64,000 nt of DNA from Candidatus Omnitrophota bacterium (GTDB lineage: Bacteria; Omnitrophota; Omnitrophia; Omnitrophales; Aquincolibacteriaceae): assembly GCA_043821445.1 (NCBI GenBank), contig JBDRCT010000040.1, forward strand, positions 26,745 to 90,744, in the 5' to 3' direction. Numbering within the stretch: position 1 is the first letter of the stretch; the number at the start of each line of letters is the position of its first letter. The notes under the pieces are model-generated. The model did not search any database. It was not told where the DNA came from and was given only the letters and a program-made list of their open reading frames with translations. Below, piece by piece: positions 3,257 to 36,054 of this stretch. Position numbers and translations under genes: made by a program.

Positions 3257-4587
3257 GTTCGGCTAAAAAGTTAAAGACGGTGGCACTACGCAGGAAGATC
3301 TTCGGGCTCGTTGAGGAATTCGCAGAAGTTGCACATGTCCCGCAATCCTTCAAACCGGGCATCACTCACGTGCCGGTGGCCGGCCGTGTTTATGGCGCCC
3401 GCGAGTTGCAGCTTTTAACCGAAGCCGGGCTTGATTTTTGGCTGACGACAGGCCGATTTAACGAGCAGTTCGAAAAGCGGCTCGCGTCATTTCTTAAGAT
3501 CCGTTATGTTTCCACGACAAATTCCGGCTCCTCCGCCAATCTTCTCGCCGTAGCCGCTTTAACCTCTCCCAAATTAGGGGATCGCGCGCTCAAACCGGAC
3601 GATGAAGTGATCACGGCTGCAGCCTGTTTTCCAACAACCGTGAATCCATTACTCCTCTACGGCCTAAGGCCCGTCTTTGTGGACGTTGCCATCCCGACCT
3701 ACAATCCAACTGCTAAGCTGGTCGCGGCGGCCATTACGAAAAAGACCCGTGCGATCATTTTAGCGCATATGCTCGGAAATCCTTTTGAGGCGGAGGCTAT
3801 TGCCGATCTTGCAAAAAAGCATGATCTTTGGCTCGTTGAGGATTGCTGTGACGCGTTGGGCAGCACTTATAACGGTAAGCGTGTCGGCACGTTGGGTCAT
3901 ATCGGAACGGCGAGCTTTTATCCCGCCCACCATATTACAATGGGAGAGGGTGGCGCCCTTTTCACCCAAGATGCATCTTTAAAGCGACTGATCGAGTCTT
4001 TTCGCGACTGGGGGCGTGATTGCTATTGCGATCCCGGAAGAGACAACACCTGCGGCAAGCGATTCACGCAACAATACGGAGATCTGCCGAAAGGTTACGA
4101 TCATAAATATGTTTACTCCCATGCGGGTTACAACCTGAAGATCACTGATATGCAGGCGGCCGTCGGACTGGCTCAAATGGACCGTCTCGAACAATTCATT
4201 AGCATCCGTAAGCGCAACTTCGCGTTCCTAAAAAAGAAGTTTGCGGGGCTTGAAGAGTTTTTTATCTTGCCGGAAGCAACTCCCGGCAGTGATCCGGCCT
4301 GGTTCGGTTTTCCGCTGACCCTACGCTCGAAGGCGCCATTTACTCGCGAAGAACTGCTTCTTCATCTGGATCAAAAACGGATCGGTACAAGGCTGTTGTT
4401 TGCGGGGAATATCACCCAACAGCCGTACTTCAAAGGCCGGAAATACCGGATCAGCGGCGATCTGAAAAATTCTGACACCATCATGAGAAATACCTTCTGG
4501 CTAGGCGTTTACCCGGGACTTACGAAAGCCATGCTGGATTATGCCGGGGATGCGGTCGGAAATTTTGTGCGGAGAAGCCGTGGTTAG
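3244..4587 (+). CDS. rfbH: CDP-4-keto-6-deoxy-D-glucose-3-dehydrase (E1), PLP/PMP-dependent DegT family with [2Fe-2S] motif
   Basis: Colinear over its whole length with RfbH/DdhC as recalled from enterobacterial O-antigen clusters ([43 protein letters not shown]). Cysteine cluster [20 protein letters not shown]. Confidence 0.9.
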
Positions 4588-11512: not shown

Positions 11513-12586
11513 ATGAAAATCGCTTTCTACGTTTATCCCACAGCCTTCCAGTCGCCGGGCGGGGGAGAGGTCCTCTTGCTCAAGACCAAAGAATACCTGG
11601 AAAAAGAAGGTGTCTCTGTAAAGCTGTTTGACACCTGGAGCGATCAGCTTACGGATTTTGACATTCTTCATGTTTTTGGATCGGTCAAGGATGCTCTCCC
11701 GATAATGGAAGCCGGAAAGCGCGCCGGGATCAAGATCGTGCTCTCAACCATTTGCTGGTACAGCTGGAAGTCGGCATGGGGGATGAACGGCCCTTTTCAA
11801 GCCCGCGCTGCCACACTCCTGCGTCACGCCGCAAAGGTTTTTATGCCGTTCGTGCCTTCTGCGCGAAAACGCATGATGGACATTTCCGATGTTCTCATAC
11901 CGAATTCCGAAAGCGAAGCCGAACAGCTGCGGCGTTTTTTTGCGATCCCGAAAGAAAAGATCACGGTGATCTTGAACGGAGTCGATCCCGCTTTTGAAAA
12001 TGCGACACCGGATTTTTTTCTGAGCAAATTCAATTTTGGAAAATTTGTTCTATGTGTCGGCCGGATCGAACCACGTAAAAATCAGCTTAACATGGTCCGC
12101 GCACTGTCAAATACTCAGATCCCGTTCGTGATCATCGGAGATCCAGTGAAACACTATCCTCATTATTATCAACAATGCCGCAAAGAAGCGGGTCCAAACA
12201 TTCATTTCCTCGGCGGAATGCCGCACGATTCGGTGCTCTTGCGCTCTGCCTATGCGGCCTGCGACACTTTTCTTCTTGCCAGCTGGCTTGAAACGCCGGG
12301 GCTTGCCGCGCTTGAAGCCGGCCTCGCCGGCGCCAAGATTGTCATCACGCAAGAAGGAGCCGCGCAAGAATACTTTCAAAACTTTGCTTTTTATGTCGAT
12401 CCCGGAAACTTATCCGACATTCTCGGAAAAACTCTAACTGCTGTGAAACGGCCGAAAAACGTTTTGCTTCAAGACCACATTCGGCAAAATTTCCTCTGGG
12501 ATCGCACATCAAAAATCGTCTGTGGTGTTTATGAACAACTGCTTCTTTCCGGCCAGGCCGGAAGAATGGCAGAAGACAAATCATGA
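11513..12586 (+). CDS. GT4 (group-1) glycosyltransferase
   Basis: GRIEPRKNQ ... ETPGLAALEAGLAGAKIV, the E-x7-E GT-B motif region. Confidence 0.8.
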   Translation: MKIAFYVYPTAFQSPGGGEVLLLKTKEYLEKEGVSVKLFDTWSDQLTDFDILHVFGSVKDALPIMEAGKRAGIKIVLSTICWYSWKSAWGMNGPFQARAATLLRHAAKVFMPFVPSARKRMMDISDVLIPNSESEAEQLRRFFAIPKEKITVILNGVDPAFENATPDFFLSKFNFGKFVLCVGRIEPRKNQLNMVRALSNTQIPFVIIGDPVKHYPHYYQQCRKEAGPNIHFLGGMPHDSVLLRSAYAACDTFLLASWLETPGLAALEAGLAGAKIVITQEGAAQEYFQNFAFYVDPGNLSDILGKTLTAVKRPKNVLLQDHIRQNFLWDRTSKIVCGVYEQLLLSGQAGRMAEDKS

Positions 12587-13677
12587 TTAAGAGCTTAGCC
12601 AATATTTTTTTGGCTTTTTTCAGCCTTTTTTTGACTCTTGTACTGGTTGAGCTTGGCCTTCGGTCTTTTGCCCCGCAGATCGTTATCTGCCATATCAATT
12701 GTGAGTGGCGCGCCGATGACCCCGTTTTTGCGTATGTGCCCAAACCCAATTATCATGGCAAAATGGTAGTCAAAAATCAGTTCTATGCCGATCTAACCAC
12801 AAATGCGCAGGGTTTTAGAGGAGAAAAAGATGTTTCCGTGGAAAGAACTCCCGGGGTTCGGCGGTTACTTTTTCTGGGAGATTCGTTCGTTTTTGGCTGG
12901 GGGGTCAATGATTCTGAAACTTTCAGCAGCGTTGTCGAAAGAGAACTGAACGCCGCAGCCACGGATTCTCCCACTGAAGTTATTAATGCCGCCGTTTATG
13001 GTTTCGACATTGTCGAATATTCCGAGATGTTCAACCGTGTCATCAAGTATTCTCCGGACGTTCTTTTCTTGGGATTTACGCTCGAAAACGATTTTAATAT
13101 TAACCCATTAAATAATGAGATTGGCACCCAAGCGATACGGGTTGAAAAGGAGGGCGGTTTAAAATACAAAGTCAGGAATTTTCTAAACAGCCTGCATCTC
13201 GTCGCGCTTCTGCGTGACCGGCTTTATATTAACTTTCCGCGAATAAGAAATTTTATGCTGTTCCTCGGGATCAATAACAAAAGGGATATTTTTCTGGAAG
13301 AATACCCCGAGCCGCTCATGGAAAACGTTCAAAAAACAGAGAAGATCCTGCGCCAAATGAAATCGATCTGTGACCAGAAAGGCATCCGTTTCGTGGTTTT
13401 GATCAACCCCCTTCGAGAACAAATTTATTGCGCTGATGAGATCAACCGATTTCCCGGATATGATATCGAAAAGCCCAACAAAACATTAAAGGCGGTCCTG
13501 GATCGGAATAAGATAGAATACGTCGATCTTCTGCCGCCGCTTCTTTTGGAAAGCAAAACAACGAAGAATCGTCTTTATTTTGATATTGATCCTCATTGGA
13601 CAAGATATGGACACGAAGTGGTTGCGCAGCAAATAGTCGCGCTTCTAAGCAAGCCCGAACAACACAAGGTGTTATGA
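12583..13677 (+). CDS. SGNH/GDSL hydrolase-family protein with N-terminal TM anchor (putative glycan O-acyl esterase/transferase)
   Basis: LFLGDSFVFGWGV block-I GDS motif. N-terminal hydrophobic helix. ATGA overlap with the upstream gene. Confidence 0.55.
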   Translation: MIKSLANIFLAFFSLFLTLVLVELGLRSFAPQIVICHINCEWRADDPVFAYVPKPNYHGKMVVKNQFYADLTTNAQGFRGEKDVSVERTPGVRRLLFLGDSFVFGWGVNDSETFSSVVERELNAAATDSPTEVINAAVYGFDIVEYSEMFNRVIKYSPDVLFLGFTLENDFNINPLNNEIGTQAIRVEKEGGLKYKVRNFLNSLHLVALLRDRLYINFPRIRNFMLFLGINNKRDIFLEEYPEPLMENVQKTEKILRQMKSICDQKGIRFVVLINPLREQIYCADEINRFPGYDIEKPNKTLKAVLDRNKIEYVDLLPPLLLESKTTKNRLYFDIDPHWTRYGHEVVAQQIVALLSKPEQHKVL

Positions 13678-14480
13678 TCGAATCTTTGAAAGAACTGAAC
13701 AGGATCTGTCAGAAGCCTGACTACAAGACGCAAGGGAACTGGTATGTCCGGACGATCCTCAGGGATGCCGCTTTGCCCATGACCTGGCTCTTACTCCATA
13801 CCGGCGTGACTGCGAATCAGGTGACCCTGACCTCGCTTGCCGTGAGCCTCGCGGGCATGATCTTTCTGTCGATCCCCGGAACGAGTGCGTTCTTAGCAGG
13901 GGTTGTGCTTTTACAGCTGTGGTATTATCTGGATCATGTGGACGGACAGATCGCGCGCTATCGGAAGACTGATTGTCTCACAGGCCGGTTCCTGGATTTT
14001 CTGACTCATCATATTGTTCACACCGCTCTCTTTTTTGCTTTAGGTTTTCATGTTTTTCAAGTGACAGGATCAGCATTATTCGCTCTGTGGGGGTTCGTGA
14101 ACTCTCTGGCGATCCTGGTCTTCAATATTGCCCATGATGTTAAATATAAGACTTTTTTTGAAGCCATTGCAAAGCAGCGAACAGTGACGTTAACGATCCA
14201 AGAAGAGACCGGGTCGTGCAAGGTTTCCGGAGAACCGGCCTCCTTAAAACGGCGTTTATTTTCCCTTGCTCACAAACTCTGTGAGATTCATGTCATGATG
14301 AACATTCTTACGTTGGGCGCCGTAGTTCAAATATTTGTTAGTGTTTTCGATATCCGGACCGTTCTCTTCCTGATCTATGGTTTTCTCGCTCCCGCAATTT
14401 CGATCATAAAGGTGGCTTACATCCTCAAGACCCGAAAGATCGATCATGAATACCGGGAAATATTTTGCCAAAAAACTTGA
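13674..14480 (+). CDS. polytopic membrane protein, CDP-alcohol phosphatidyltransferase-like
   Basis: DHVDGQIARYRKTDCLTGRFLDFL resembles the D-G-x2-A-R-x8-G-x3-D signature. Multiple TM helices. ATG 13674 overlaps the upstream stop (ATGA). Confidence 0.45.
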   Translation: MIESLKELNRICQKPDYKTQGNWYVRTILRDAALPMTWLLLHTGVTANQVTLTSLAVSLAGMIFLSIPGTSAFLAGVVLLQLWYYLDHVDGQIARYRKTDCLTGRFLDFLTHHIVHTALFFALGFHVFQVTGSALFALWGFVNSLAILVFNIAHDVKYKTFFEAIAKQRTVTLTIQEETGSCKVSGEPASLKRRLFSLAHKLCEIHVMMNILTLGAVVQIFVSVFDIRTVLFLIYGFLAPAISIIKVAYILKTRKIDHEYREIFCQKT

Positions 14481-16486
14481 AGGCCGCCATTCCCCCCCCC
14501 ACTTCTGGAAATTCTTTCCCGGTACTGTCAGCCCATCGGAGTGGCCTCCTCGCGGGTTTTCTGTTCGTGATGCTCGCCTGGCAATGTTTTTATTCGGCCT
14601 GGACCCAGGGACAGACAACCGATGAAGCTTTTTTTGCGCCAAGCGGATATTCCATTGTCCGGTACAATAACTACGAGTTTTTAGGCGAACATCCGCCCTT
14701 GATTTTGCAGCTAGGAGCTTTGCCGCTTTTGGCGATACAGCCGAAATTCCCGATCAAAGATCCGCTCTACGTTCCCGGGACGGACAGGCTTGATCTCACG
14801 CAGAACGGCCTTCGATTTCTTTACAAAATGGGGAATGATCCCGACTTGATACTGTTCCTTCAACGAATTCCTATCGTTCTGTTGACGGTTCTTCTCGGTG
14901 TGGGCGTTTTTCTTTTTACCAGGGAGCTTTGGGGGGATTGGGGAGGGCTGCTTTCGCTGGCTCTTTTTTCGTTCTCTCCGAATATGATCGCCCATGGAAG
15001 TCTCTACACTACCGATCTGGGACTGACAGCCTTCTATTTCTTTGTGATCTACGCATTCAAACGTTTTTCTGACTCGCCTTCAGACCGTCGTGTTGCCTGG
15101 CTCGGACTAGCCTGCGGTGCCGCTTTGATGACAAAGATCAGCAGTCTGATTCTTTTACCGGTCCTTTCCAGTTTGTTTTTGGTCTACTATTTTACGGAGG
15201 CCCGGCAGACCCTTATCGAGGCGCCTTCATTATCTTTTGAAAAATGGATCCTCGGAATCGCGCTTTTCCTGATCGCGAACGCGATCGGAGAGAGGCAAGC
15301 AATGGTTCTCTTCGGACCATTTCTTGTTTTTGCGGCCTATCTTTGCGCCCGTGATATCGAAAAACTCCGGAATTCACGGGCTCTCAGAATTGCACTCAAA
15401 GGGGCGGCCCTTGCCGGAGCTATCCTCTGTGTCGTTTACTCCATACGACTCAAAAAGAAATATGGGATTTCAGCCGCGTCCATTTTAGCCGCCGGGAATC
15501 TCGTGGCGCTTGGTGCCGCTGTCTTATTGGCCCGGCTCTCTACGGAGGATGTCAGGATACGTGTTTTGAAATATTTTCTTGCGATCTGGGTTTTGGCCGC
15601 GCTGGTGATCGTTCTCGGATACACCGATTTTCTTTACAAATTCTACCGTTTCATCGGCTTTGGCAATTACATGAAGCCACTCGGGATCGTTCTGTCGCAT
15701 TCGAAAGGCGGGCATGGGGCCTGCGTTGAAGGCTCGTTCATCACTTGTGATTGGCGATATTTCCCTGGCGTGATGGCGATTAAAACTCCGTTACTGACAT
15801 TGGTTTTAACGGTTATCGGGGCCATGGGGCTGCTCTTCTCCAAACGTTCCATCCTGACTAAGTCCCTAGTCTTTGTTCCGCTTGTTTTTTTTCTCGCCGC
15901 AGCCATGCTGAACAAGATCCATATCGGTCTACGGCATATTCTTCCCGTGTTCCCGTTCTTTTTTCTTCTTGCCGGATATGCCGGGTATCTTATCGGCAAG
16001 ATCAAACCGAAGTTCTTTAGAAATGCCGTGGCAGTGTTTTTGACGCTCCTGGTCATTCTATCTGCCGGCCGGAGCCTGGCCGGTGGGCCAGACCATCTCG
16101 CTTATTTTAACGAGCTTACCGGCGGACCCGAACAGGGGGCCAAGCTGGTCGCGGATTCGAATCTAAACTGGGGACAGGACAATAAGCGTCTTGCCGAGTT
16201 TGTCCTTGAAAAGAAGATCCGTTTTATTAAGATCATGGCCGAGGCAATGAACACGGATGTGTACAGCTACTATAAAATCCCGTGGAAGATGCTCGAGCCG
16301 GGCGATCTTATAGATCCAGCTCCTGGATTTTACGCTCTCGGCATCGGCTGTTACACTCAGCAGCAGAACGATCCACGTTCGTGGTTCAAAGGAAAGCAGC
16401 CCAAATACCGGGCCGGGAAGACGTTTTATGCGTTTGAGGTGCCGAATAAACCGACCCTGGACAACCGACTACAGGCCACAGACTGA
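14465..16486 (+). CDS. GT-C fold membrane glycosyltransferase (ArnT/PMT, GT39/GT83-like)
   Basis: 673 aa with more than 10 TM helices. YTTDLGLTAFYFFVIYAF-type loop. A C9 homopolymer lies in the first 12 codons. Confidence 0.6.
   Translation: MPKNLKAAIPPPTSGNSFPVLSAHRSGLLAGFLFVMLAWQCFYSAWTQGQTTDEAFFAPSGYSIVRYNNYEFLGEHPPLILQLGALPLLAIQPKFPIKDPLYVPGTDRLDLTQNGLRFLYKMGNDPDLILFLQRIPIVLLTVLLGVGVFLFTRELWGDWGGLLSLALFSFSPNMIAHGSLYTTDLGLTAFYFFVIYAFKRFSDSPSDRRVAWLGLACGAALMTKISSLILLPVLSSLFLVYYFTEARQTLIEAPSLSFEKWILGIALFLIANAIGERQAMVLFGPFLVFAAYLCARDIEKLRNSRALRIALKGAALAGAILCVVYSIRLKKKYGISAASILAAGNLVALGAAVLLARLSTEDVRIRVLKYFLAIWVLAALVIVLGYTDFLYKFYRFIGFGNYMKPLGIVLSHSKGGHGACVEGSFITCDWRYFPGVMAIKTPLLTLVLTVIGAMGLLFSKRSILTKSLVFVPLVFFLAAAMLNKIHIGLRHILPVFPFFFLLAGYAGYLIGKIKPKFFRNAVAVFLTLLVILSAGRSLAGGPDHLAYFNELTGGPEQGAKLVADSNLNWGQDNKRLAEFVLEKKIRFIKIMAEAMNTDVYSYYKIPWKMLEPGDLIDPAPGFYALGIGCYTQQQNDPRSWFKGKQPKYRAGKTFYAFEVPNKPTLDNRLQATD
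14492..14500 (+). repeat. C9 homopolymeric tract within the first codons (PPP) of the GT-C glycosyltransferase gene
   Basis: The sequence attCCCCCCCCCact is read directly; it lies 12 nt after the upstream gene's stop. Confidence 0.9.
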
Positions 16487-16491
16487 CAACC

Positions 16492-18186
16492 ATGAAATCT
16501 ATCGAAAAGAGTTCGCTGGTATCTTGGCTTATAAATAGCACACTTTTGTTGGCGGGCCTGGCAGCCATTTTCTTCCTGCTAACCAGCGGCGTTCTGTTTG
16601 TTCAGGCGGGGTGGATCCACGAGCTTGGGAAAAAAGGGCGGTATGTCCGCCTTATGGGAATTTCGGTTTCCGTTTTTGCCGTGCTTATGTTCCTGGCGCG
16701 ATGGAAGTTCCGGAATATCTTCGATGGATGCTGTTGGGTCAAGTGGTGGCAGGGCGTCTGCCGTATCCCTTTTCGGTACACGGCGATGGACTTGTTTGTT
16801 ATCTACGCGGCTATGATGGCGGGGGTGGGGTTTGAACGGCAGCTGGCGCTTGAAACGCGGGCGTTTGACCTCGGGCTCTTCGCGCAGGCGGTCTGGAATA
16901 CACTTCAGGGAGATTTTCTTTTTTGTTCCATCAAAGAAAATATCAACTTGTTGGGCGATCACGTCAGTCCGATCCTGCTGGCAACGGTCCCATTCTATGC
17001 GATCTGGCCCGATCCGTGCATGCTTGTCTTACTACAGGCACTTGCGGCCGCAAGCTCCTTCTTTCCCCTGGCCCTGATCGTGCGGGACAAGCTCAAAGAC
17101 CGTTCGCTTGTTCTGATCTTTCTTCTGATGTTTTTTTTCTTCCAGCCCATGCGCGCCGCACTTCACGAAGATTTTCATCCTGAAGTCCTGGCGGAGCCCT
17201 TTTTATGGTGGGCATTCTTTTTCCTCGACAGGGGAAAAGTTGTCCGGTTTCTGCTTTGTTTGGCTGTCGCGGTCACCGGTAAAGAGAATTTCTTCGGGAT
17301 CGCTTTTATGTTGGGCTTTTATGCTTGCGTTTGGAAGAAAATGCGGTGGACCGGGATCTTGGTGATGACAACCTCGGTCGTGCTTCTTTTGTGGGAGACA
17401 AGATGGCTTGTGCCGCATCTTTCCGGCGCCGTTTATTTCTACGGAGGGAATTACAGCCGGATGTTGGCCGATCCCGTTCATGGGATATTTCTGAGACTGT
17501 TGAGTTTTGAATCGTTAGAGTACCTATTTAAGATCTTTGTTCCCTTCCTCTTTCTTCCGTTCTTCCATCTCCCGACGCTTTTGCTGACTTTCCCGGTGCT
17601 TTTCCAGAATCTCCTTTCCGGGAACGGGGCTATGCGTTCTTTCAACTACCATTACGTAACGGGGATGACGCCTTTCCTTTTCATTTCAACGATCTATGCC
17701 TTGGCTAGGTTAAGAGACCGGAAAGTGTGGATCGCGAAGCATCTCTCGTGGATCGGTTTTGCGTTGTTATTTGCGAGCGTTCTCCGTTCCGGACCATCCG
17801 AGTATTGGTTTTTCTGGAATATCCACTCACACCGGAGCGCTCACACGGATATGGTAAGGGCGAAGTTGAGAGAGATTCCGCCGAGTGCCCGCATCTTGAC
17901 CCATAATACTTTTGTTCCACAGCTGTGCAACCGCAAATACATTTATCAATTTAATTATAACCCCAAACCGGACAAGATCGATTTCGTTGAAAAATATAAG
18001 ACCGACACTGTGATCTGGGACCGGAATTACTGGGAACCCAACACAGAATCCCTGGAAACTTCGCTCGAACGGTTGCAATCAGCCGGTTTTTCGGTGGAGT
18101 TCGAAAAGGATGGCTTTTATATACTTCGGAAGACCGTAGCACTTGCTCCTATGAGCAAGTACGATGCCGCCACTTTCACGGATTGA
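16492..18186 (+). CDS. large polytopic membrane protein (DUF2079-like; possible GT-C-type transferase)
   Basis: 564 aa, highly hydrophobic with many predicted TM segments and a soluble C-terminal domain. Confidence 0.4.
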   Translation: MKSIEKSSLVSWLINSTLLLAGLAAIFFLLTSGVLFVQAGWIHELGKKGRYVRLMGISVSVFAVLMFLARWKFRNIFDGCCWVKWWQGVCRIPFRYTAMDLFVIYAAMMAGVGFERQLALETRAFDLGLFAQAVWNTLQGDFLFCSIKENINLLGDHVSPILLATVPFYAIWPDPCMLVLLQALAAASSFFPLALIVRDKLKDRSLVLIFLLMFFFFQPMRAALHEDFHPEVLAEPFLWWAFFFLDRGKVVRFLLCLAVAVTGKENFFGIAFMLGFYACVWKKMRWTGILVMTTSVVLLLWETRWLVPHLSGAVYFYGGNYSRMLADPVHGIFLRLLSFESLEYLFKIFVPFLFLPFFHLPTLLLTFPVLFQNLLSGNGAMRSFNYHYVTGMTPFLFISTIYALARLRDRKVWIAKHLSWIGFALLFASVLRSGPSEYWFFWNIHSHRSAHTDMVRAKLREIPPSARILTHNTFVPQLCNRKYIYQFNYNPKPDKIDFVEKYKTDTVIWDRNYWEPNTESLETSLERLQSAGFSVEFEKDGFYILRKTVALAPMSKYDAATFTD

Positions 18187-18688: not shown

Positions 18689-19489
18689 ATGAAGAATATA
18701 AATACATTCAGCGGTTTGGGCCCCAAGGAGGCGGAATTCGTAGCTCGTCTTTCCTATGAAAAAAAGACCATCGTCACGGCGGATGAAATAGACAAATTTC
18801 TTCCGGCCGACTTCAAGTATCGCAGGCAATTTGTTTATACTCTGAAACAGAAGCGGGTACTCACACCCATCAAAGGCGGGGTGTATATTTTTACGCCGCT
18901 TGACTCGATCGCCACGGGAACACGCGTTCATGAGTTCCTGATCCCCGCCGTCTTTCTTCCGCGTGGGAACTATTACCTCGGATACTCGGTGATGTTCAAC
19001 TATTACGGGTTCACCGAACAGATCTTCCAGACGGTCTATGTGATCAATACGTCCCTGTGCAAAGAAAAGATGGTGTGCGGCATCGCGTATAAATTCGTTA
19101 AAGTCCCGGAAAAACGCATGTATGGGATCGAGAAGATCACGGTCCAGGGCGTGACCGTCCCCGTCAGTTCGAAGGAAAGGACTTTGGTGGATCTCATTTA
19201 TTTCAATAAACCGGTTGGCGGAGTTATCCCGGCGGTTCAGATCCTTAAGGACACCGTGAAGCGGAAACAGTGCGATATCGGAAAGCTTGTGGAAATGGCG
19301 TCCCGTTTTCCCAATATTACGGCGCGTAAAAGAATCGGCGTAACGCTTGAAGGGCTTGGTGTCGGATGTGCGGTCCTGAAGCCGCTTATAAAGAGTGTCG
19401 AGAAAACAGCGATCAATTCGCTGGAGGATTCCCGTAAAGGTTCTCTGAACACAACATGGAGGGTCATCGTTGGTGATCCACGAAAATAA
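18689..19489 (+). CDS. AbiEi-family antitoxin / transcriptional regulator
   Basis: About 266 aa with an N-terminal wHTH-like segment. Encoded immediately upstream of, and overlapping, a nucleotidyltransferase AbiEii-like gene. Own TTGACA promoter. Confidence 0.65.
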   Translation: MKNINTFSGLGPKEAEFVARLSYEKKTIVTADEIDKFLPADFKYRRQFVYTLKQKRVLTPIKGGVYIFTPLDSIATGTRVHEFLIPAVFLPRGNYYLGYSVMFNYYGFTEQIFQTVYVINTSLCKEKMVCGIAYKFVKVPEKRMYGIEKITVQGVTVPVSSKERTLVDLIYFNKPVGGVIPAVQILKDTVKRKQCDIGKLVEMASRFPNITARKRIGVTLEGLGVGCAVLKPLIKSVEKTAINSLEDSRKGSLNTTWRVIVGDPRK

Positions 19490-20351
19490 AGACGATTTTC
19501 TGAATGTTCTGAAGCAGACGTCGGCGCAGACCGGGTTCACTCTGTCGCTGATCGAAAAGGACTATTACCTGACGCTTGTTCTATCGCGTCTTCAGGATCT
19601 CAGTTCCAATCTGATCTTCAAGGGCGGGACATGTCTCAATAAGGTCTATTATTCCTATTACCGGCTGAGCGAAGACCTTGACTTCAGCATGCGGCTTCCT
19701 GATGGGAAGGTGACTAAGACCGTGCGGAGCCGGTCCATGAAACCCATCAAGGAGAAGATAGGGGAGTTTGCCGCGCAGTTTGGAATGAAACTCGATACCA
19801 CAAAGAACCCCGGCCGGAACGAATCAAAACAATACGTTTTTGATCTCGCTTATCCTTCTGTAGTACTGCCTCAGGAAGCAAAAATAAGGTTTGAGGTTGG
19901 CCTACGGTTCAACCCGGTTTGCCCGGTTGAAAAACATGAAGTTCAGCATCAATTTACGCATCCTTTTACCGGGGAACGTTTGTTTGACGGCGGTGAGGTG
20001 AATTGCCTGGGCCTCAAAGAGCTGGTCTCCGAAAAGCTGCGTGCTGCCGCTCTCCGTAAAACCATCGCGCCCCGTGATTTTTATGATCTTGATTTCATTC
20101 TACGGAAAAAATTTGACCTCACGGATCGCGAAGTGCTGGAGCTTTTCCGGAAGAAACTCGCGGAAGACGGCGGAGATGCGGATATCACCAGGTACCGGGT
20201 GAATCTTGGAAGACGGCCCGAGGAGATCAAAGACATGAGTGGCAGGATCAAGGAGGAGCTCTTCGAAGTTCTGACCGCTGAAGAGCGCAAGAACTTTGAC
20301 CTTGATACTGCGATCGCACGGCTGAACCAGGCATTTTCCAAGTTGGCGTAA
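19470..20351 (+). CDS. AbiEii/AbiGii-family nucleotidyltransferase toxin
   Basis: IFKGGTCLNKVY ... RLSEDLDFS, the hallmark NTase motif. 293 aa. Confidence 0.8.
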   Translation: MVIHENKDDFLNVLKQTSAQTGFTLSLIEKDYYLTLVLSRLQDLSSNLIFKGGTCLNKVYYSYYRLSEDLDFSMRLPDGKVTKTVRSRSMKPIKEKIGEFAAQFGMKLDTTKNPGRNESKQYVFDLAYPSVVLPQEAKIRFEVGLRFNPVCPVEKHEVQHQFTHPFTGERLFDGGEVNCLGLKELVSEKLRAAALRKTIAPRDFYDLDFILRKKFDLTDREVLELFRKKLAEDGGDADITRYRVNLGRRPEEIKDMSGRIKEELFEVLTAEERKNFDLDTAIARLNQAFSKLA

Positions 20352-24471: not shown

Positions 24472-25208
24472 GCCTGAGTGCGGTATTGATCACGCTTAAC
24501 GAAGAAAGGAAGCTTCCGGAATGCTTGCGTCGGCTAGCTTTTGCTGACGAGATTGTTGTTGTGGATTCTTGCAGTGAAGACCAGACCGTTCAAATTGCTG
24601 AAAAAGCCGGCGCTAAAGTCTTCCAGCGTACATTCGATTCTTTTTCCGGGCAGAAGAATTATGGGATCCAGATGGCCGGAGGAGACTGGATCCTGCTCAT
24701 TGATGCTGACGAGCTTGTCACCCCGGAGTTGCGCGATGAAATACTAAGCGCTATTCGATCTCAGGAATATCGTAGCGCATTTACGCTTCGGCGGGTTAAT
24801 CAGATTTTTGGTGCGGTGTTGCGTCACGGTGCGAGTGGTGAAGACCATCCTATTCGGCTGGTCCGTAAAGGGGCAGGGGTTTTTGAAGGATTGGTTCATG
24901 AAAAACTGCGCATCGAGGGGGAGATTGGGGACCTTCGCGGGGAGTTAACGCACATTACCTATCAAACGTTGGAAGAATATTTTTTAAAATTTAACCAGTT
25001 CTCTTCCTTGGATGCCCGAGAATTCCTGCGCCAAGAAAGAAAGCCGCCTTCTTGGCTTCAGATTTTGGTGAAGCCTGCCGCTGAGTTCTTTTTTTATTAT
25101 ATCGTGAAAGCAGGCTTTCTGGACGGTTGGCCAGGTTTCCAGTATCAGGTTCTCTCCTCGTTCTATGTTTTTATAAAGCATGCTAAAGCGAAGAATCTAA
25201 AAAAATGA
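24468..25208 (+). CDS. GT2 glycosyltransferase, WaaE/KdtX-like (LPS core-type)
   Basis: MSLSAVLITLNEERKL ... VVVDSCSEDQT ... LLIDADE. Paralog at 59297. ATGA overlap upstream. Confidence 0.75.
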   Translation: MSLSAVLITLNEERKLPECLRRLAFADEIVVVDSCSEDQTVQIAEKAGAKVFQRTFDSFSGQKNYGIQMAGGDWILLIDADELVTPELRDEILSAIRSQEYRSAFTLRRVNQIFGAVLRHGASGEDHPIRLVRKGAGVFEGLVHEKLRIEGEIGDLRGELTHITYQTLEEYFLKFNQFSSLDAREFLRQERKPPSWLQILVKPAAEFFFYYIVKAGFLDGWPGFQYQVLSSFYVFIKHAKAKNLKK

Positions 25209-26768: not shown

Positions 26769-27326
26769 ATGAACCATTCAGAGCGTTTTAAAATACTCAT
26801 GGAATCCGGCCGGACGGTGTTTACGCCTCTGGACATGCGCATGTTATGGCGGGTAAATACGCTGAACGCCAAGATCAGTATCGTGCGTATGGTAGAAAAA
26901 GGTCTTGTGGTCCGGTTGGCCACAGGCTTTTACGCCCTGAATGACCGTTACAACCGGTACGAGTTTGCCAATAGGATCCTGTCGCCCTCCTATGTGTCCT
27001 TCCAGTCCGCGCTTTTTCATGCGGGAATCAATTTTCAGGCCCGTGACGAGATCGGATCGGTGGCCCTGCGGGATCATCGGAAGAAGGTCGGGAATACGCT
27101 CTATACCCATGCGGCCATGAAACAAGATCTTTTTTTTAATATCAAAGGGGTCGTGACGCGTGAGGGGGTAGCGATGGCATTGCCCGAGCGCGCGATCCTG
27201 GACAGCTTCTACTTCGGGTATCTTCCGGACATTGATGACGCTTCAAAGCTGAATAAGACATTTCTTGAGGAACTCAGCGCTCTTTACCCGAAAACGGTCC
27301 AAAAAAAGGTGAAGGGGCTTCTATGA
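26769..27326 (+). CDS. AbiEi-family antitoxin / regulator (second copy)
   Basis: 185 aa. Precedes and overlaps (ATGA) an AbiEii-like gene. Own TTGACA promoter with a palindromic operator. Confidence 0.6.
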   Translation: MNHSERFKILMESGRTVFTPLDMRMLWRVNTLNAKISIVRMVEKGLVVRLATGFYALNDRYNRYEFANRILSPSYVSFQSALFHAGINFQARDEIGSVALRDHRKKVGNTLYTHAAMKQDLFFNIKGVVTREGVAMALPERAILDSFYFGYLPDIDDASKLNKTFLEELSALYPKTVQKKVKGLL

Positions 27327-28018
27327 GCCGCCTTTTTGATCCGGATGTTCACAAGCGGTATCTGTCGCTTTTGCTGACGGAACTGGCCAAAGCTTTCCCC
27401 GAGAAGATCGCCTTTAAAGGCGGGACCTGCGCTTATTTTTTTTATAACCTTCCGAGGTTTTCGTTCGATCTTGATTTTGACATGCTCCGGGAGTTCAGCG
27501 CCGGGGACGCGGACAGGTTCCGTGAAGTCCTTTCGCGGCATGGGCAAGCGAAGGAATTTCGGGACAAGCAGAACACGCTTTTCTGCCTTTTTGATTACGG
27601 AAAGGGACATCCCAACATCAAGATCGAACTGGGCCGGCGCGTATGGAAAAATAACGTTTATAAACCGGTCTGGTTTTTAGGAGTGCCTCTTGTCATCGCC
27701 GATGAACGAACGGTGCTGACCAATAAACTTGTTGCCCTGACCGACCGGAAGACCGCGGTTGCGAGGGATCTTTATGACAGTTGGTATTTTTTGAAGGCGG
27801 GATTTCCCGTGAGCGAGGCTCTTGTCATGGAGCGTACGGGAAAGGATCTTGGAGCGTACCTTAAAGGGGCGATGGGCTTTATCAGAAGGACCTATACCCC
27901 GCGCAATGTCCTGCACGGGCTGGGTGACGTGCTGGATGAGAAGCAAAAGTCGTGGGCCAAAGACCATCTTGTTCTTGAAACGATCCTGGAGATGAAGAAA
28001 CGGATCACACCGCTATGA
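27323..28018 (+). CDS. AbiEii-family nucleotidyltransferase toxin (second copy)
   Basis: IAFKGGTCAYFF ... RFSFDLDFD NTase motif. Confidence 0.8.
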   Translation: MSRLFDPDVHKRYLSLLLTELAKAFPEKIAFKGGTCAYFFYNLPRFSFDLDFDMLREFSAGDADRFREVLSRHGQAKEFRDKQNTLFCLFDYGKGHPNIKIELGRRVWKNNVYKPVWFLGVPLVIADERTVLTNKLVALTDRKTAVARDLYDSWYFLKAGFPVSEALVMERTGKDLGAYLKGAMGFIRRTYTPRNVLHGLGDVLDEKQKSWAKDHLVLETILEMKKRITPL

Positions 28019-29047: not shown

Positions 29048-29857
29048 ATGTTCACGTTGCTTAAAAGAATCATCCAACATTTTTTTTTACTGACACAGCT
29101 CGTCCGGGTCGACTTGACCGGGAAATACAAGACGTCGGTTCTGGGGATGTTGTGGATTTTTCTGAACCCGCTTATTCTTTTTTTTCTCTACATGTTTATT
29201 TTCTCAATCGTTCTAAAAGTCCGCTTTCCGGAACAACAAAGTGTCTTTTTTTACGGGCTCAACCTTTTTTGCGGTTTGATCGCCTGGAACGCATTCGCCG
29301 AAAGCATCCAGCGGTCATCTTCTGTGATTATGAATCACGCTCACCTTATAAAGCGCTCTCTTTTTCCGACCGAGATCCTGGGGATATCAATCTCGCTTTC
29401 AACGATCATCCGCCTCATTATTGAAATGGCGCTTTTTATCGTGTTGCTCACGGCTATTGGGTGGCAGATCACGCCGGCTTTCTTATGGCTGCCTTTTCTC
29501 GTCATTCTTCAATTGCTTTTTACCACAGCTCTTGCCTGGCTTGTGTCCGCGATGACCGTTCTTGTGAGGGATCTCGCGCATCTTGTGGGACCGCTGCTTA
29601 CAGTGTGGTTCTTCATGACGCCTGTCGTGTATCCGGAGACCATGGCAAAGTCGCTTGGGGGATGGCAATGGCTGGCATTTCTTATTCACATCAATCCCAT
29701 GGCAAAGCTTATCAGTACCTATCGCGGTATTTTGCTCTTTGGTTATTTTGATTTTACCCCGAACGTAATCTTATTAACGGTTTTTGTGCTGGTTTTCTTC
29801 CTGTTGAGCGCCGCAGTTTTCCAGAAACTTCAGCCGGAGATTATCGAAAACTTATGA
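29048..29857 (+). CDS. wzm: ABC-2 type polysaccharide export permease
   Basis: 269 aa with 6 TM helices. ABC-2 signature region. Followed by an overlapping ATPase gene. Confidence 0.8.
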   Translation: MFTLLKRIIQHFFLLTQLVRVDLTGKYKTSVLGMLWIFLNPLILFFLYMFIFSIVLKVRFPEQQSVFFYGLNLFCGLIAWNAFAESIQRSSSVIMNHAHLIKRSLFPTEILGISISLSTIIRLIIEMALFIVLLTAIGWQITPAFLWLPFLVILQLLFTTALAWLVSAMTVLVRDLAHLVGPLLTVWFFMTPVVYPETMAKSLGGWQWLAFLIHINPMAKLISTYRGILLFGYFDFTPNVILLTVFVLVFFLLSAAVFQKLQPEIIENL

Positions 29858-35181: not shown

Positions 35182-36054
35182 ATGAAGGTATGTCTCTCCT
35201 GCAGGGCTGGATTCCATAGCCAAGATTGGTCCTGTCCAAACTGCGGGGCACAGGCAGAGCATATCAACGGCTATCCCGTTCTCTACCCGAGATCGACAGT
35301 GCCAGAAGATGGATTTAAAGCAGAGTATTTTGCAAGGTTAGCCGGCATCGAAGCTGCTAATTTTTGGTTTCGCTCACGCAACAGGCTGATATTATGGGCG
35401 GTAGAAAGATATTTTTCGGGCGCTGAAAATTTTCTAGAAATAGGCTGCGGTACGGGTTTTGTTCTTTCCGCTATAAAAAAAAAGTTTCCCAGTCTTTCTT
35501 TGTACGGAAGTGATATTTATGCGGAAGGATTGAATTGCGCTAAAGAACGTGCAGGGCACCTTTCTTTGATGCTTATGGATGCCCGAGCGATACCGTATGA
35601 AAACGAATTTGATCTCATAGGCGCTTTTGATATTCTTGAACATGTCAAAGAAGAGGAGCTCGTCCTTTCGCAAATTCACAAATCATTGCGAAAAGGAGGA
35701 GGCATGCTTTTGACGGTTCCGCAGCACCCCTTTCTTTGGAGCCGATCCGATGAAGCGGCGTGCCACCTGCGCCGTTATCATGCGGCACAACTCAAGGCTA
35801 AAGTTGAGAAAACAGGATTCAGAATTCTCAAAATGACATCTTTTGTTTCGCTGCTCTTGCCGCTGATGATCTTAGCGCGTTTATGGGAAAAGCATGTGCG
35901 CAGGGAAAAATATGATGTTATGCGTTCTTTGGAGTTTAACTGGACGGTTGACATCCTCATGGAGAAGGTGCTCGACTTTGAGAGATTTCTCGTTCAGAAG
36001 GGTGTATCGTTCCCATTTGGAGGGAGTCTTTTCTTAATTGCCCGCAGAACATGA
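35182..36054 (+). CDS. class I SAM-dependent methyltransferase with N-terminal zinc ribbon
   Basis: CLSC ... CPNCG ribbon; EIGCGTGFVL motif I. Confidence 0.7.
   Translation: MKVCLSCRAGFHSQDWSCPNCGAQAEHINGYPVLYPRSTVPEDGFKAEYFARLAGIEAANFWFRSRNRLILWAVERYFSGAENFLEIGCGTGFVLSAIKKKFPSLSLYGSDIYAEGLNCAKERAGHLSLMLMDARAIPYENEFDLIGAFDILEHVKEEELVLSQIHKSLRKGGGMLLTVPQHPFLWSRSDEAACHLRRYHAAQLKAKVEKTGFRILKMTSFVSLLLPLMILARLWEKHVRREKYDVMRSLEFNWTVDILMEKVLDFERFLVQKGVSFPFGGSLFLIARRT

Follow-up and report, generated by a model that had tools for sequence, protein, structure and literature searches.

A run of nine cytosines (CCCCCCCCC, positions 14492–14500 of the forward strand, preceded by ATT and followed by ACT) near the 5′ end of a GT-C glycosyltransferase gene has the layout of an on/off slippage switch and is, judged from its sequence, a plausible candidate for this well-known mechanism. 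The run is present in the sequence of the window, by which we mean the whole 64-kb stretch of DNA analyzed, and is a genuine, lineage-specific poly-C run encoding Pro-Pro-Pro in a disordered, unconserved tail. To the reading that C9 may serve as a heritable and reversible three-state translational slippage switch (a contingency locus), we assign a probability of about 0.45; an incidental polyproline-coding run is nearly as likely.

The glycosyltransferase gene and its operon

The ORF that carries the run (Table 1), whose translation begins MPKNLKAAIPPPTSG... from the TTG at 14465, is identical to MFH1800859.1, annotated by NCBI as 'glycosyltransferase family 39 protein' of Candidatus Omnitrophota bacterium and originating from a MAG. 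The window sequence and the ORF frame agree that the nine cytosines are three proline codons at codons 10–12, as the earlier note had read them; the same codons become Pro6–8 if the TTG at 14477 serves as the start. Identification of the product as an ArnT/PMT-like GT-C enzyme is supported by both profile and fold. The PF13231 (PMT_2) profile matched the protein with E = 5.3e-10 and 40.2 bits (curated cutoff of 26.1). Because neither the single sequence nor a profile yielded a sequence-level match to solved structures, a fold search was needed. With an AlphaFold model (pLDDT 87, pTM 0.89), the best 31 Foldseek matches in the PDB were all GT-C enzymes (STT3, PglB, AglB, ArnT, Pmt, ALG and AftA), with E values down to 1.9e-7 and TM-scores of 0.25–0.39. 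The residues D53-E54 belong to the sequence G-Q-T-T-D-E, right after TM1 in the first extracytoplasmic loop, and neither of them varies among 45 homologues.

Residues 1–18 are disordered in the model (pLDDT < 50), and the N-terminal tail is conserved across homologues in neither length nor sequence. The proposed position of the run just before the first transmembrane helix was borne out by the model, in which it lies ~10 residues ahead of TM1. The C9 run is located in a length-tolerant cytoplasmic tail, yet upstream of every essential element.

Table 1 Features at and around the C9 run
Feature	Positions	Strand	Description
CDP-alcohol phosphatidyltransferase gene (upstream)	13674..14480	+	268 aa; MFH1800858.1; TGA stop at 14478-14480
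ATG in the -1 frame	14446..14448	+	Within the D-H-E codons of the upstream gene; opens full-length ORF MNTGKYFAKKLEGRHSPPTSG... if C8 or C11
Inverted repeat	14451..14524	+	Arms 14451-14466 and 14509-14524; 14/16 complementary; 42-nt loop
GT-C (PMT_2 / GT39-like) glycosyltransferase CDS	14465..16486	+	673 aa; NCBI places the start at the TTG
Alternative in-frame TTG	14477..14479	+	Overlaps the upstream stop as cTTGAag
C9 homopolymer	14492..14500	+	In-frame CCC CCC CCC, Pro10-Pro11-Pro12 of the GT-C protein
First transmembrane helix (TM1)	14531..14605	+	Residues 23-47, AlphaFold model; kept in 45 homologues
DUF2079 membrane protein gene (downstream)	16492..18186	+	Same operon; also adjoins the GT-C gene in relatives

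That the GT-C gene belongs to a large surface-polysaccharide cluster is supported by its surroundings. The operon encodes nucleotide-sugar enzymes, GT2 and GT4 glycosyltransferases, an AlgX-like SGNH protein, the CDP-alcohol transferase, GT-C and DUF2079 proteins, Wzy_C and Wzm/Wzt, a gene content that points to surface-glycan synthesis. The CDP-alcohol phosphatidyltransferase and DUF2079 neighbors offer circumstantial indication only that the sugar donor may be polyprenyl-phosphate linked. Abortive-infection genes are located within the same glycan cluster.

An inverted repeat, one of 11 of its kind in the window, encloses the C9 run together with the TTG starts and the stop codon of the upstream gene. 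Its significance is uncertain. The stem is part of the MFE fold, but shuffled versions of the region fold just as well (z = −0.44). An invertible-DNA switch operating through the flanking repeat was set aside, as the spacer is very short for recombinase-driven inversion and the ATG of the inverted orientation would not read into the GT-C frame.

Start codons and the three reading phases

Variants of the site from C6 to C12 were built in silico to follow the frame of each possible start. With C9 (and likewise C6 and C12), the TTG at 14465 or 14477 is in frame; with C8 (and C11), the ATG at 14446 comes into frame and the protein is still full length; with C10 (and C7), the gene is left without any start, because the TGA of the upstream gene closes the third frame 11 nt ahead of the run. 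Across these variants, a change in unit number at this position alters the frame. Since a −1 slip brings the ATG at 14446 into frame, the enzyme could be made in two of the three phases. The earlier note had claimed that a slip of plus or minus one would frameshift the protein, which is correct for +1, where all upstream starts are lost, but not for −1, where the ATG gives a full-length protein. This −1-frame ATG could be a chance occurrence, with a probability that is appreciable though below even, and this counts against a switch. The overlap of the TTG at 14477 with the upstream stop is of the 4-nt kind also seen at the ATGA junctions of the operon at 12583 and 13674. Starts in two frames precede the run, and the gene lacks the short N-terminus, begun at an ATG, that nearly all relatives have.

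Shine–Dalgarno scores of the three candidate starts were near the background median and showed no separation, and many genes of the operon have no Shine–Dalgarno sequence; with all candidates so close to background, a choice between ATG and TTG on this basis was dropped. Downstream of the run, the only in-frame starts are GTG 14567 (codon 35) and ATG 14570 (codon 36). Both fall within the conserved TM1, which places the C9 run inside the CDS, and the suggestion that the run may instead sit in a promoter or RBS spacer ahead of a downstream start was rejected.

At nine bases, the run is within the hypermutable range for homopolymers (~8 or more, with G/C the most mutable), using thresholds from PMC5084427, PMC2651432 and PMC3315296. 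A G/C run of this length is by its nature liable to slipped-strand mispairing when it is replicated, and because C9 lies between the possible starts and the first essential element, TM1, every +1 or −1 change would re-phase translation initiation. If C9 is a switch, cells in the C9 state (also C6 and C12) would initiate at the weak TTG at 14465 or at the stop-overlapping TTG at 14477, those in the C8 state (also C11) would initiate at the ATG at 14446 and make an equally full-length enzyme, and those in the C10 state (also C7) would have no start and the enzyme would be off. One step of surface-glycan synthesis would thereby be diversified within the population. We infer in this scheme the variation in run length, the difference in expression between TTG and ATG initiation and the selection for a switch.

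Expected frequency and comparison with homologous loci

Among the G/C runs of the window C9 is the longest, followed by three G7 runs (at 2985, 33492 and 40321) and four C6 runs. An A9 (35475–35483) and a T9 (29080–29088) equal it in length, so that the description of C9 as the longest homopolymer in the window stands among G/C runs and not overall. The 64-kb window contains no C7 or C8 run, and a second G/C run of at least eight bases was not found in it; with a single long G/C run in 64 kb, the sign of a 'phasome' is absent. A first-order Markov model predicts 0.14 C runs of at least nine bases per 64 kb, and G/C runs of at least nine occur five times in homologous glycan loci totaling 939 kb (~1 per 190 kb, or ~0.34 per 64 kb). 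C9 is therefore unusual for the window and not extraordinary for a genome.

Codon usage seems a poor explanation for the run, although the ~0.34 runs per 64 kb of comparable loci make its over-representation no more than possible. CCC accounts for 26% of proline codons, giving a probability of ~0.017 for three CCC codons at a given PPP. The window has no further PPP, and its other Pro-Pro dicodons, 36 in number, include no CCC-CCC. C9 runs counter to the local avoidance of C runs. Its less expected features are this otherwise avoided codon pair and its closeness to a gene start (36 nt or less), which a randomly placed run would show in ~3–10% of cases.

Among 151 homologues with complete 5′ ends, none has a G/C run of at least eight bases at the 5′ end; the closest relatives (70–81% identity) have an ATG or GTG start and plain sequence there, and PPP is conserved in none of the homologues. 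Orthologues with non-repetitive sequence and an identical protein start had been named as evidence against a switch. The 151 homologues do have non-repetitive sequence at this site, but their N-termini are unconserved, so the start is not strictly identical. G/C runs of 8–9 occur in related Omnitrophota loci at ~1 per 46 kb, mostly mid-gene at Gly-Gly codons, and include, elsewhere in the operon, a G9 in the transferase gene of locus L012 and a G8 in the GT-C gene of locus L081. Such G8–G9 runs lie mid-CDS in intact frames and are thus tolerated without an obvious switch role. Two GT-C orthologues from other MAGs, L165 and L166, are interrupted close to or at homopolymers, L165 at a T7.

The protein clusters of the GT-C gene and of both its neighbors have one member each. 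When the products of the GT-C, DUF2079 and SGNH genes were looked up by exact sequence, no other contig was returned, and a DNA pattern scan of JGI metagenomes for C7–C13 versions of the site gave 0 matches. Within the window, 52 ORFs of at least 180 aa span 94% of the sequence. Of the 41 longest homopolymer runs, 39 fall inside long open frames and break none of them, including a T8 and a G6 in the GT-C gene itself. The presence of these homopolymers inside intact long ORFs indicates that the assembly is reliable at homopolymers.

Weighing of alternative explanations

The strongest competitor to a switch is an incidental run, produced by slippage-driven expansion of Pro-Pro(-Pro) in a dispensable tail. 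Such a run would be neutral or slightly deleterious, mutable but unselected as a switch, and would persist because the tail tolerates in-frame changes and a slip to C8 keeps the protein full length. A disordered tail free to vary in length and sequence is what this explanation calls for, and the absence of a 5′ run in all 151 homologues, the ~0.3 G/C runs of at least nine bases expected per window from comparable loci and the intact frames around mid-CDS G8–G9 runs in relatives are consistent with it. The U-shaped density of simple sequence repeats (SSRs) along genes can also come from structural constraints alone (PMC3315296). The organism is not a known host-adapted pathogen, and we found no papers on phase variation in Omnitrophota or on homopolymer phase variation in metagenomes. 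Harder to reconcile with an incidental origin are the avoidance of C runs in the rest of the window (no C7 or C8; CCC-CCC in 0/36 Pro-Pro pairs), the landing of the sole long G/C run in the ~3–10% of sequence best suited to a frameshift switch and the occurrence of the run in a GT-C gene that lacks the short ATG-initiated N-terminus of its relatives and has starts in two frames upstream.

It is improbable that the length of the run is an assembly or consensus error, in which case the run would truly be C8, the gene would begin at ATG 14446 and overlap its upstream neighbor by 35 nt, and the TTG would be an annotation rescue. A C8 would yield the ATG that starts nearly all clear genes of the window and nearly all orthologues, homopolymer miscalls are known for some platforms (454, PMC2651432) and the split L165 and L166 orthologues could reflect such MAG errors generally. 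This explanation is opposed by the unbroken frames around the longest homopolymers of the window and by the location of the ATG within conserved D-H-E-Y codons of the upstream gene, where it is missing in the syntenic relative L080. Moreover, a 35-nt overlap would be unlike the 4-nt overlaps of the operon, and the GT-C gene carries no NCBI frameshift flag.

We give very little credence to an effect exerted without any change in DNA, in which GT-C output would be tuned by ribosomes pausing at PPP in an EF-P-dependent manner, or RNA polymerase slippage would generate mixed-phase mRNAs, and the inverted repeat may keep the starts occluded as long as the upstream ORF is untranslated. Polyproline stalling requires EF-P, and transcriptional slippage happens at long runs; it is best documented for A/T rather than C runs, which counts against the polymerase version. 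The placement of PPP at codons 10–12, the start codons in two frames and the 16-nt inverted repeat that brackets the starts and the run, one of only 11 in the window, would suit such an effect. Against it, PPP is conserved in no homologue, the hairpin region is no more stable than its shuffles and neither version would require the codon choice CCC-CCC-CCC.

Relation to known phase-variable loci

Poly-G/C runs in 5′ coding sequence are found in the Neisseria lgt genes, Campylobacter jejuni CPS/LOS genes and Helicobacter pylori fucosyltransferases. As in such LOS/LPS glycosyltransferase loci, C9 is a G/C homopolymer of at least eight bases within the CDS of a surface-glycan transferase, where a one-base change shifts the frame. 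Those loci have documented length polymorphism, are many per genome and belong to host-associated bacteria often without full mismatch repair, whereas here one run in 64 kb is known from a single assembly of an environmental uncultured phylum. The GT-C protein is also an integral-membrane enzyme, in contrast to the soluble GT-A/GT-B enzymes typical of the LOS/LPS examples.

Genes for glycan modification are the classic case of SSR control (PMC8437040). SSR indel variability climbs by orders of magnitude between 6 and 10 bp, and biophysical causes alone can make SSRs more frequent close to N-termini (PMC3315296). Meningococcal homopolymers of at least 8 nt were mostly variable in deep sequencing, with G/C runs dominating the strong candidates (PMC5084427), and a nine-base run is of a length at which deep sequencing has shown variation (PMC5084427, PMC8437040). 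In Haemophilus influenzae lic2A, start codons in two frames lie upstream of the repeat (PMC3116884), an arrangement resembled here by TTG 14465/14477 and ATG 14446. The lic2A and lic1A repeats consist of many copies of the 4-nt unit CAAT and their expression was measured, whereas the repeat here is a 9-nt homopolymer for which expression is predicted.

Slippage-controlled surface-glycan genes are textbook material in a few host-adapted pathogens and almost undocumented in uncultured environmental phyla. If C8, C9 and C10 subpopulations are real, stochastic surface variation would extend to Omnitrophota, and run length would be a simple, testable marker of how heterogeneous the glycans of a population are, for instance when phages exert pressure. 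A run of constant length would be an ordinary polyproline-coding oddity that carries a caution for start annotation (TTG versus a frame-shifted ATG). A more ambitious reading, which we regard as unlikely, is that of a working ATG-initiated/TTG-initiated/off switch, the first in Omnitrophota and part of a phylum-wide habit of long G/C runs in the CDP-alcohol-transferase/GT-C glycan operon, diversifying the surface of very small, possibly host-dependent cells against phages or hosts. The G9 of L012, the G8 of L081 and the frame-split GT-C genes of L165 and L166 would then be other possible instances.

The enzyme itself resembles the PMT_2/GT39/GT83 group (ArnT and PMT; more distantly STT3/PglB) in its multi-helix membrane fold and in the position of D53-E54 after TM1. 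What sets it apart from this group is its membership of a separate subfamily, found mainly in Omnitrophota, whose C-terminal soluble domain is conserved.

The C9 run lies within the coding sequence of a GT-C glycosyltransferase gene

Nine cytosines, flanked by ATT on one side and ACT on the other, read in frame as CCC CCC CCC and form codons 10–12 of a 673-aa open reading frame that starts at TTG and begins MPKNLKAAIPPPTSG..., bearing out the earlier note's reading of the site. The product matches MFH1800859.1 exactly from end to end; NCBI records that protein with the same TTG start as 'MAG: glycosyltransferase family 39 protein [Candidatus Omnitrophota bacterium]' on a 93,859-bp contig. Its Pfam PMT_2 match exceeds the curated threshold, and all 31 best PDB fold matches of its AlphaFold model (pLDDT 87, pTM 0.89) are GT-C enzymes (STT3, PglB, AglB, ArnT, Pmt, ALG9/12 and AftA), with no sequence match to any solved structure detectable. 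The gene sits in a co-directional surface-glycan cluster containing nucleotide-sugar enzymes, GT2, GT4, an AlgX-like SGNH protein, a CDP-alcohol phosphatidyltransferase directly upstream and DUF2079 directly downstream, followed by more GT2, a methyltransferase, a deacetylase, Wzy_C and a Wzm/Wzt exporter. Relatives also show the gene order CDP-alcohol transferase, GT-C, DUF2079. AbiEi/AbiEii genes (type IV toxin–antitoxin/abortive infection) lie inside the polysaccharide cluster, and the relative L080 carries an AbiEii gene just downstream of its GT-C orthologue.

Conservation across 45 homologues begins at the first transmembrane helix (TM1), followed directly by G-Q-T-T-D-E with an invariant D53-E54; the model places TM1 at residues 23–47, and residues 1–18 are disordered. 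Past the run, the gene's frame offers as ATG, GTG or TTG codons only GTG at codon 35 and ATG at codon 36, both in the middle of TM1. Initiation at either would cost the protein half of its first helix; the start is therefore upstream and the run is inside the coding sequence, which rules out the alternative raised earlier of a tract in the promoter or RBS spacer.

Coordinates of the features discussed (window positions unless a relative's locus is named)
Feature	Position	Remark
CDP-alcohol phosphatidyltransferase gene	13674-14480 (+)	TGA at 14478-14480
ATGA junctions of the operon	12583, 13674	
ATG start	14446	C8 (also C11): predicted full-length protein, MNTGKYFAKKLEGRHSPPTSG...
TTG starts	14465, 14477	C9 (also C6, C12): predicted full-length protein
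Upstream start, C10 (also C7)	none	predicted off
Inverted-repeat arms	14451-14466, 14509-14524	
GT-C gene	14465-16486 (+)	
C9 run	14492-14500	
DUF2079 gene	16492-18186 (+)	
AbiEi/AbiEii genes	18689-20351, 27323-28018	
Wzm-like ABC-2 permease gene	29048-29857	
T9	29080-29088	codons 11-14 (Phe-Phe-Leu) of the permease gene
A9	35475-35483	
Start-near A8	after ATG 7577	directly after ATG
Start-near A8	after ATG 10325	
Start-near T8	52 nt into Wzy_C gene at 25205	
G8, L002	2237	GT2
Two G8, L009	2529, 2622	carbamoyltransferase
G9, L012	2939-2947	CDP-alcohol transferase orthologue, Ca. Taenariivivens; non-conserved Gly-Gly-Gly
G8, L081	4599-4606	GT-C orthologue; identical in L082, L083
G13, L030	12596-12608	unannotated ORF
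AbiEii gene, L080	5797-6609	
Frame change, L165	3972-3992	T7 at 3981-3987
Frame change, L166	1361-1366	

A homopolymer scan returned the C9 run as the longest G/C homopolymer of the window and its sole G/C run of at least 8, at most 36 nt from the gene start; other C runs reach only C6 (n = 4), with C7 and C8 absent, and G runs reach G7 (n = 3). The description of it as the longest homopolymer holds for G/C only, because an A9 and a T9 tie with it. A first-order Markov model predicts 0.14 C runs of at least 9 per 64 kb. Across 52 long ORFs (60.4 kb), CCC accounts for 26% of Pro codons, CCC-CCC occurs in 0 of 36 Pro-Pro dicodons (2.4 expected) and no second PPP is found; from Pro codon usage, the probability of three CCC codons given PPP is ~0.017. 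The run thus goes counter to a local avoidance of C runs.

A/T runs of at least 8 number 28 in the window versus ~10 expected under a first-order Markov model, and roughly one in four is no more than 100 nt from a likely gene start. The T9 is a second 9-nt homopolymer within the first 14 codons of a gene, here a glycan-export gene of the same cluster, which precedes a Wzt ATPase gene whose product carries a Wzt_C domain.

Predicted effects of run-length change

Versions of the run from C6 to C12 were built in silico and the starts upstream of it compared. The earlier note had expected a slip in either direction to frameshift the whole protein. A +1 slip would turn the gene off, but a −1 slip would exchange the TTG start for an ATG start and keep the protein full length. 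In the C10/C7 phase the GT-C frame is that of the upstream gene, closed by its TGA 11 nt before the run; readthrough of this single stop codon would fuse the CDP-alcohol transferase with the GT-C protein. The second TTG overlaps the same TGA as cTTGAag, the 4-nt coupling geometry of the operon's ATGA junctions. Shine-Dalgarno pairing energies of the three candidate starts (−5.0, −4.3 and −3.3 kcal/mol) are near background (median −3.9) and do not discriminate among them. The arrangement resembles Haemophilus influenzae lic2A, in which initiation codons in two frames precede the repeat (PMC3116884).

An inverted repeat (16-nt arms, 14/16 complementary, 42-nt loop) brackets both TTG codons, the upstream stop codon and the C9 run. 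The window contains just 11 inverted repeats of at least 14 nt within 80 nt. Compared with shuffled sequence, the region shows no gain in folding stability (z = −0.44). The repeat may serve as a translational-coupling hairpin or be fortuitous.

Conservation, background frequency and competing explanations

Loci were collected from species-representative genomes (79), JGI metagenomes (80) and the contigs of the closest proteins, the nearest homologue being only 74% identical. A scan of 45.9 kb at the 5′ ends of 151 homologues in which this end is complete found no G/C run of at least 8; it turned up a single G7, far upstream, and some 6-nt runs. Among the closest relatives the start codon, ATG or in L080 GTG, lies 7–30 residues ahead of TM1, their N-terminal tails are unrelated sequences, and in the alignment with the syntenic L080 the C9 run stands at the edge of an indel-rich, unalignable inter-gene junction. 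This makes the C9 run lineage-specific. The earlier note had counted non-repetitive orthologues sharing an identical protein start against a switch; only half of this applies, since the starts, too, lack conservation. The GT-C protein and those of its two neighbors each form a single-member protein cluster, exact protein look-ups matched no other contig and a metagenome DNA scan for C7–C13 versions of the site gave zero matches. A literature search found no paper tying Omnitrophota to phase variation.

Omnitrophota loci totaling 231 kb contain 26, 3, 4 and 1 G/C runs of length 6, 7, 8 and 9, respectively, a heavy-tailed distribution in which runs of at least 8 exceed geometric extrapolation from shorter ones; these are G runs within intact glycan genes, encoding Gly-Gly(-Gly). 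Five G/C runs of at least 9 in 939 kb (84 loci) correspond to ~0.34 per 64 kb, so the presence of a C9 is by itself statistically unremarkable. About one third of 17 distinct runs of at least 8 lie within ~130 nt of a start, in agreement with a general excess of SSRs near N-termini, whose cause can be biophysical rather than adaptive (PMC3315296). On length alone, a G13 in a Terracidiphilus (Acidobacteriota) MAG, 42 nt past the first start codon of an ORF adjoining that MAG's GT-C homologue, is a stronger contingency-locus candidate.

We regard the C9 site as a candidate slippage switch, with a probability of about 0.45. It has the anatomy of a translational SSR switch, and the gene is of a suitable kind; homopolymers of at least 8 are empirically variable in length in other bacteria (PMC5084427), and SSR variability climbs steeply between 6 and 10 bp (PMC3315296). 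Against a switch stand the lack of conservation in homologues and of any wider pattern of such runs, and an incidental polyproline-coding stretch within a dispensable tail is nearly as probable a reading. A consensus length error, with a true C8 and the ATG start, is unlikely: 52 ORFs of at least 180 aa cover 94% of the window, 39 of the 41 longest homopolymers lie inside long open frames left unbroken, including a T8 and a G6 in the GT-C gene itself, and the NCBI record of the gene has no frameshift flag. Effects of the run at the RNA or translation level are very improbable. If real, the switch would be a further member of a well-known kind, its main points of interest being the phylum, the GT-C host gene and the starts in two frames.

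In other MAGs, single-base frame changes split two GT-C orthologues: the L165 gene at a T7 run, and the L166 gene within a conserved Ser-x-Gly-Gly-His site at which G7 runs occur in L080 and L018. The splits may reflect true inactivation or errors in the MAG consensus.
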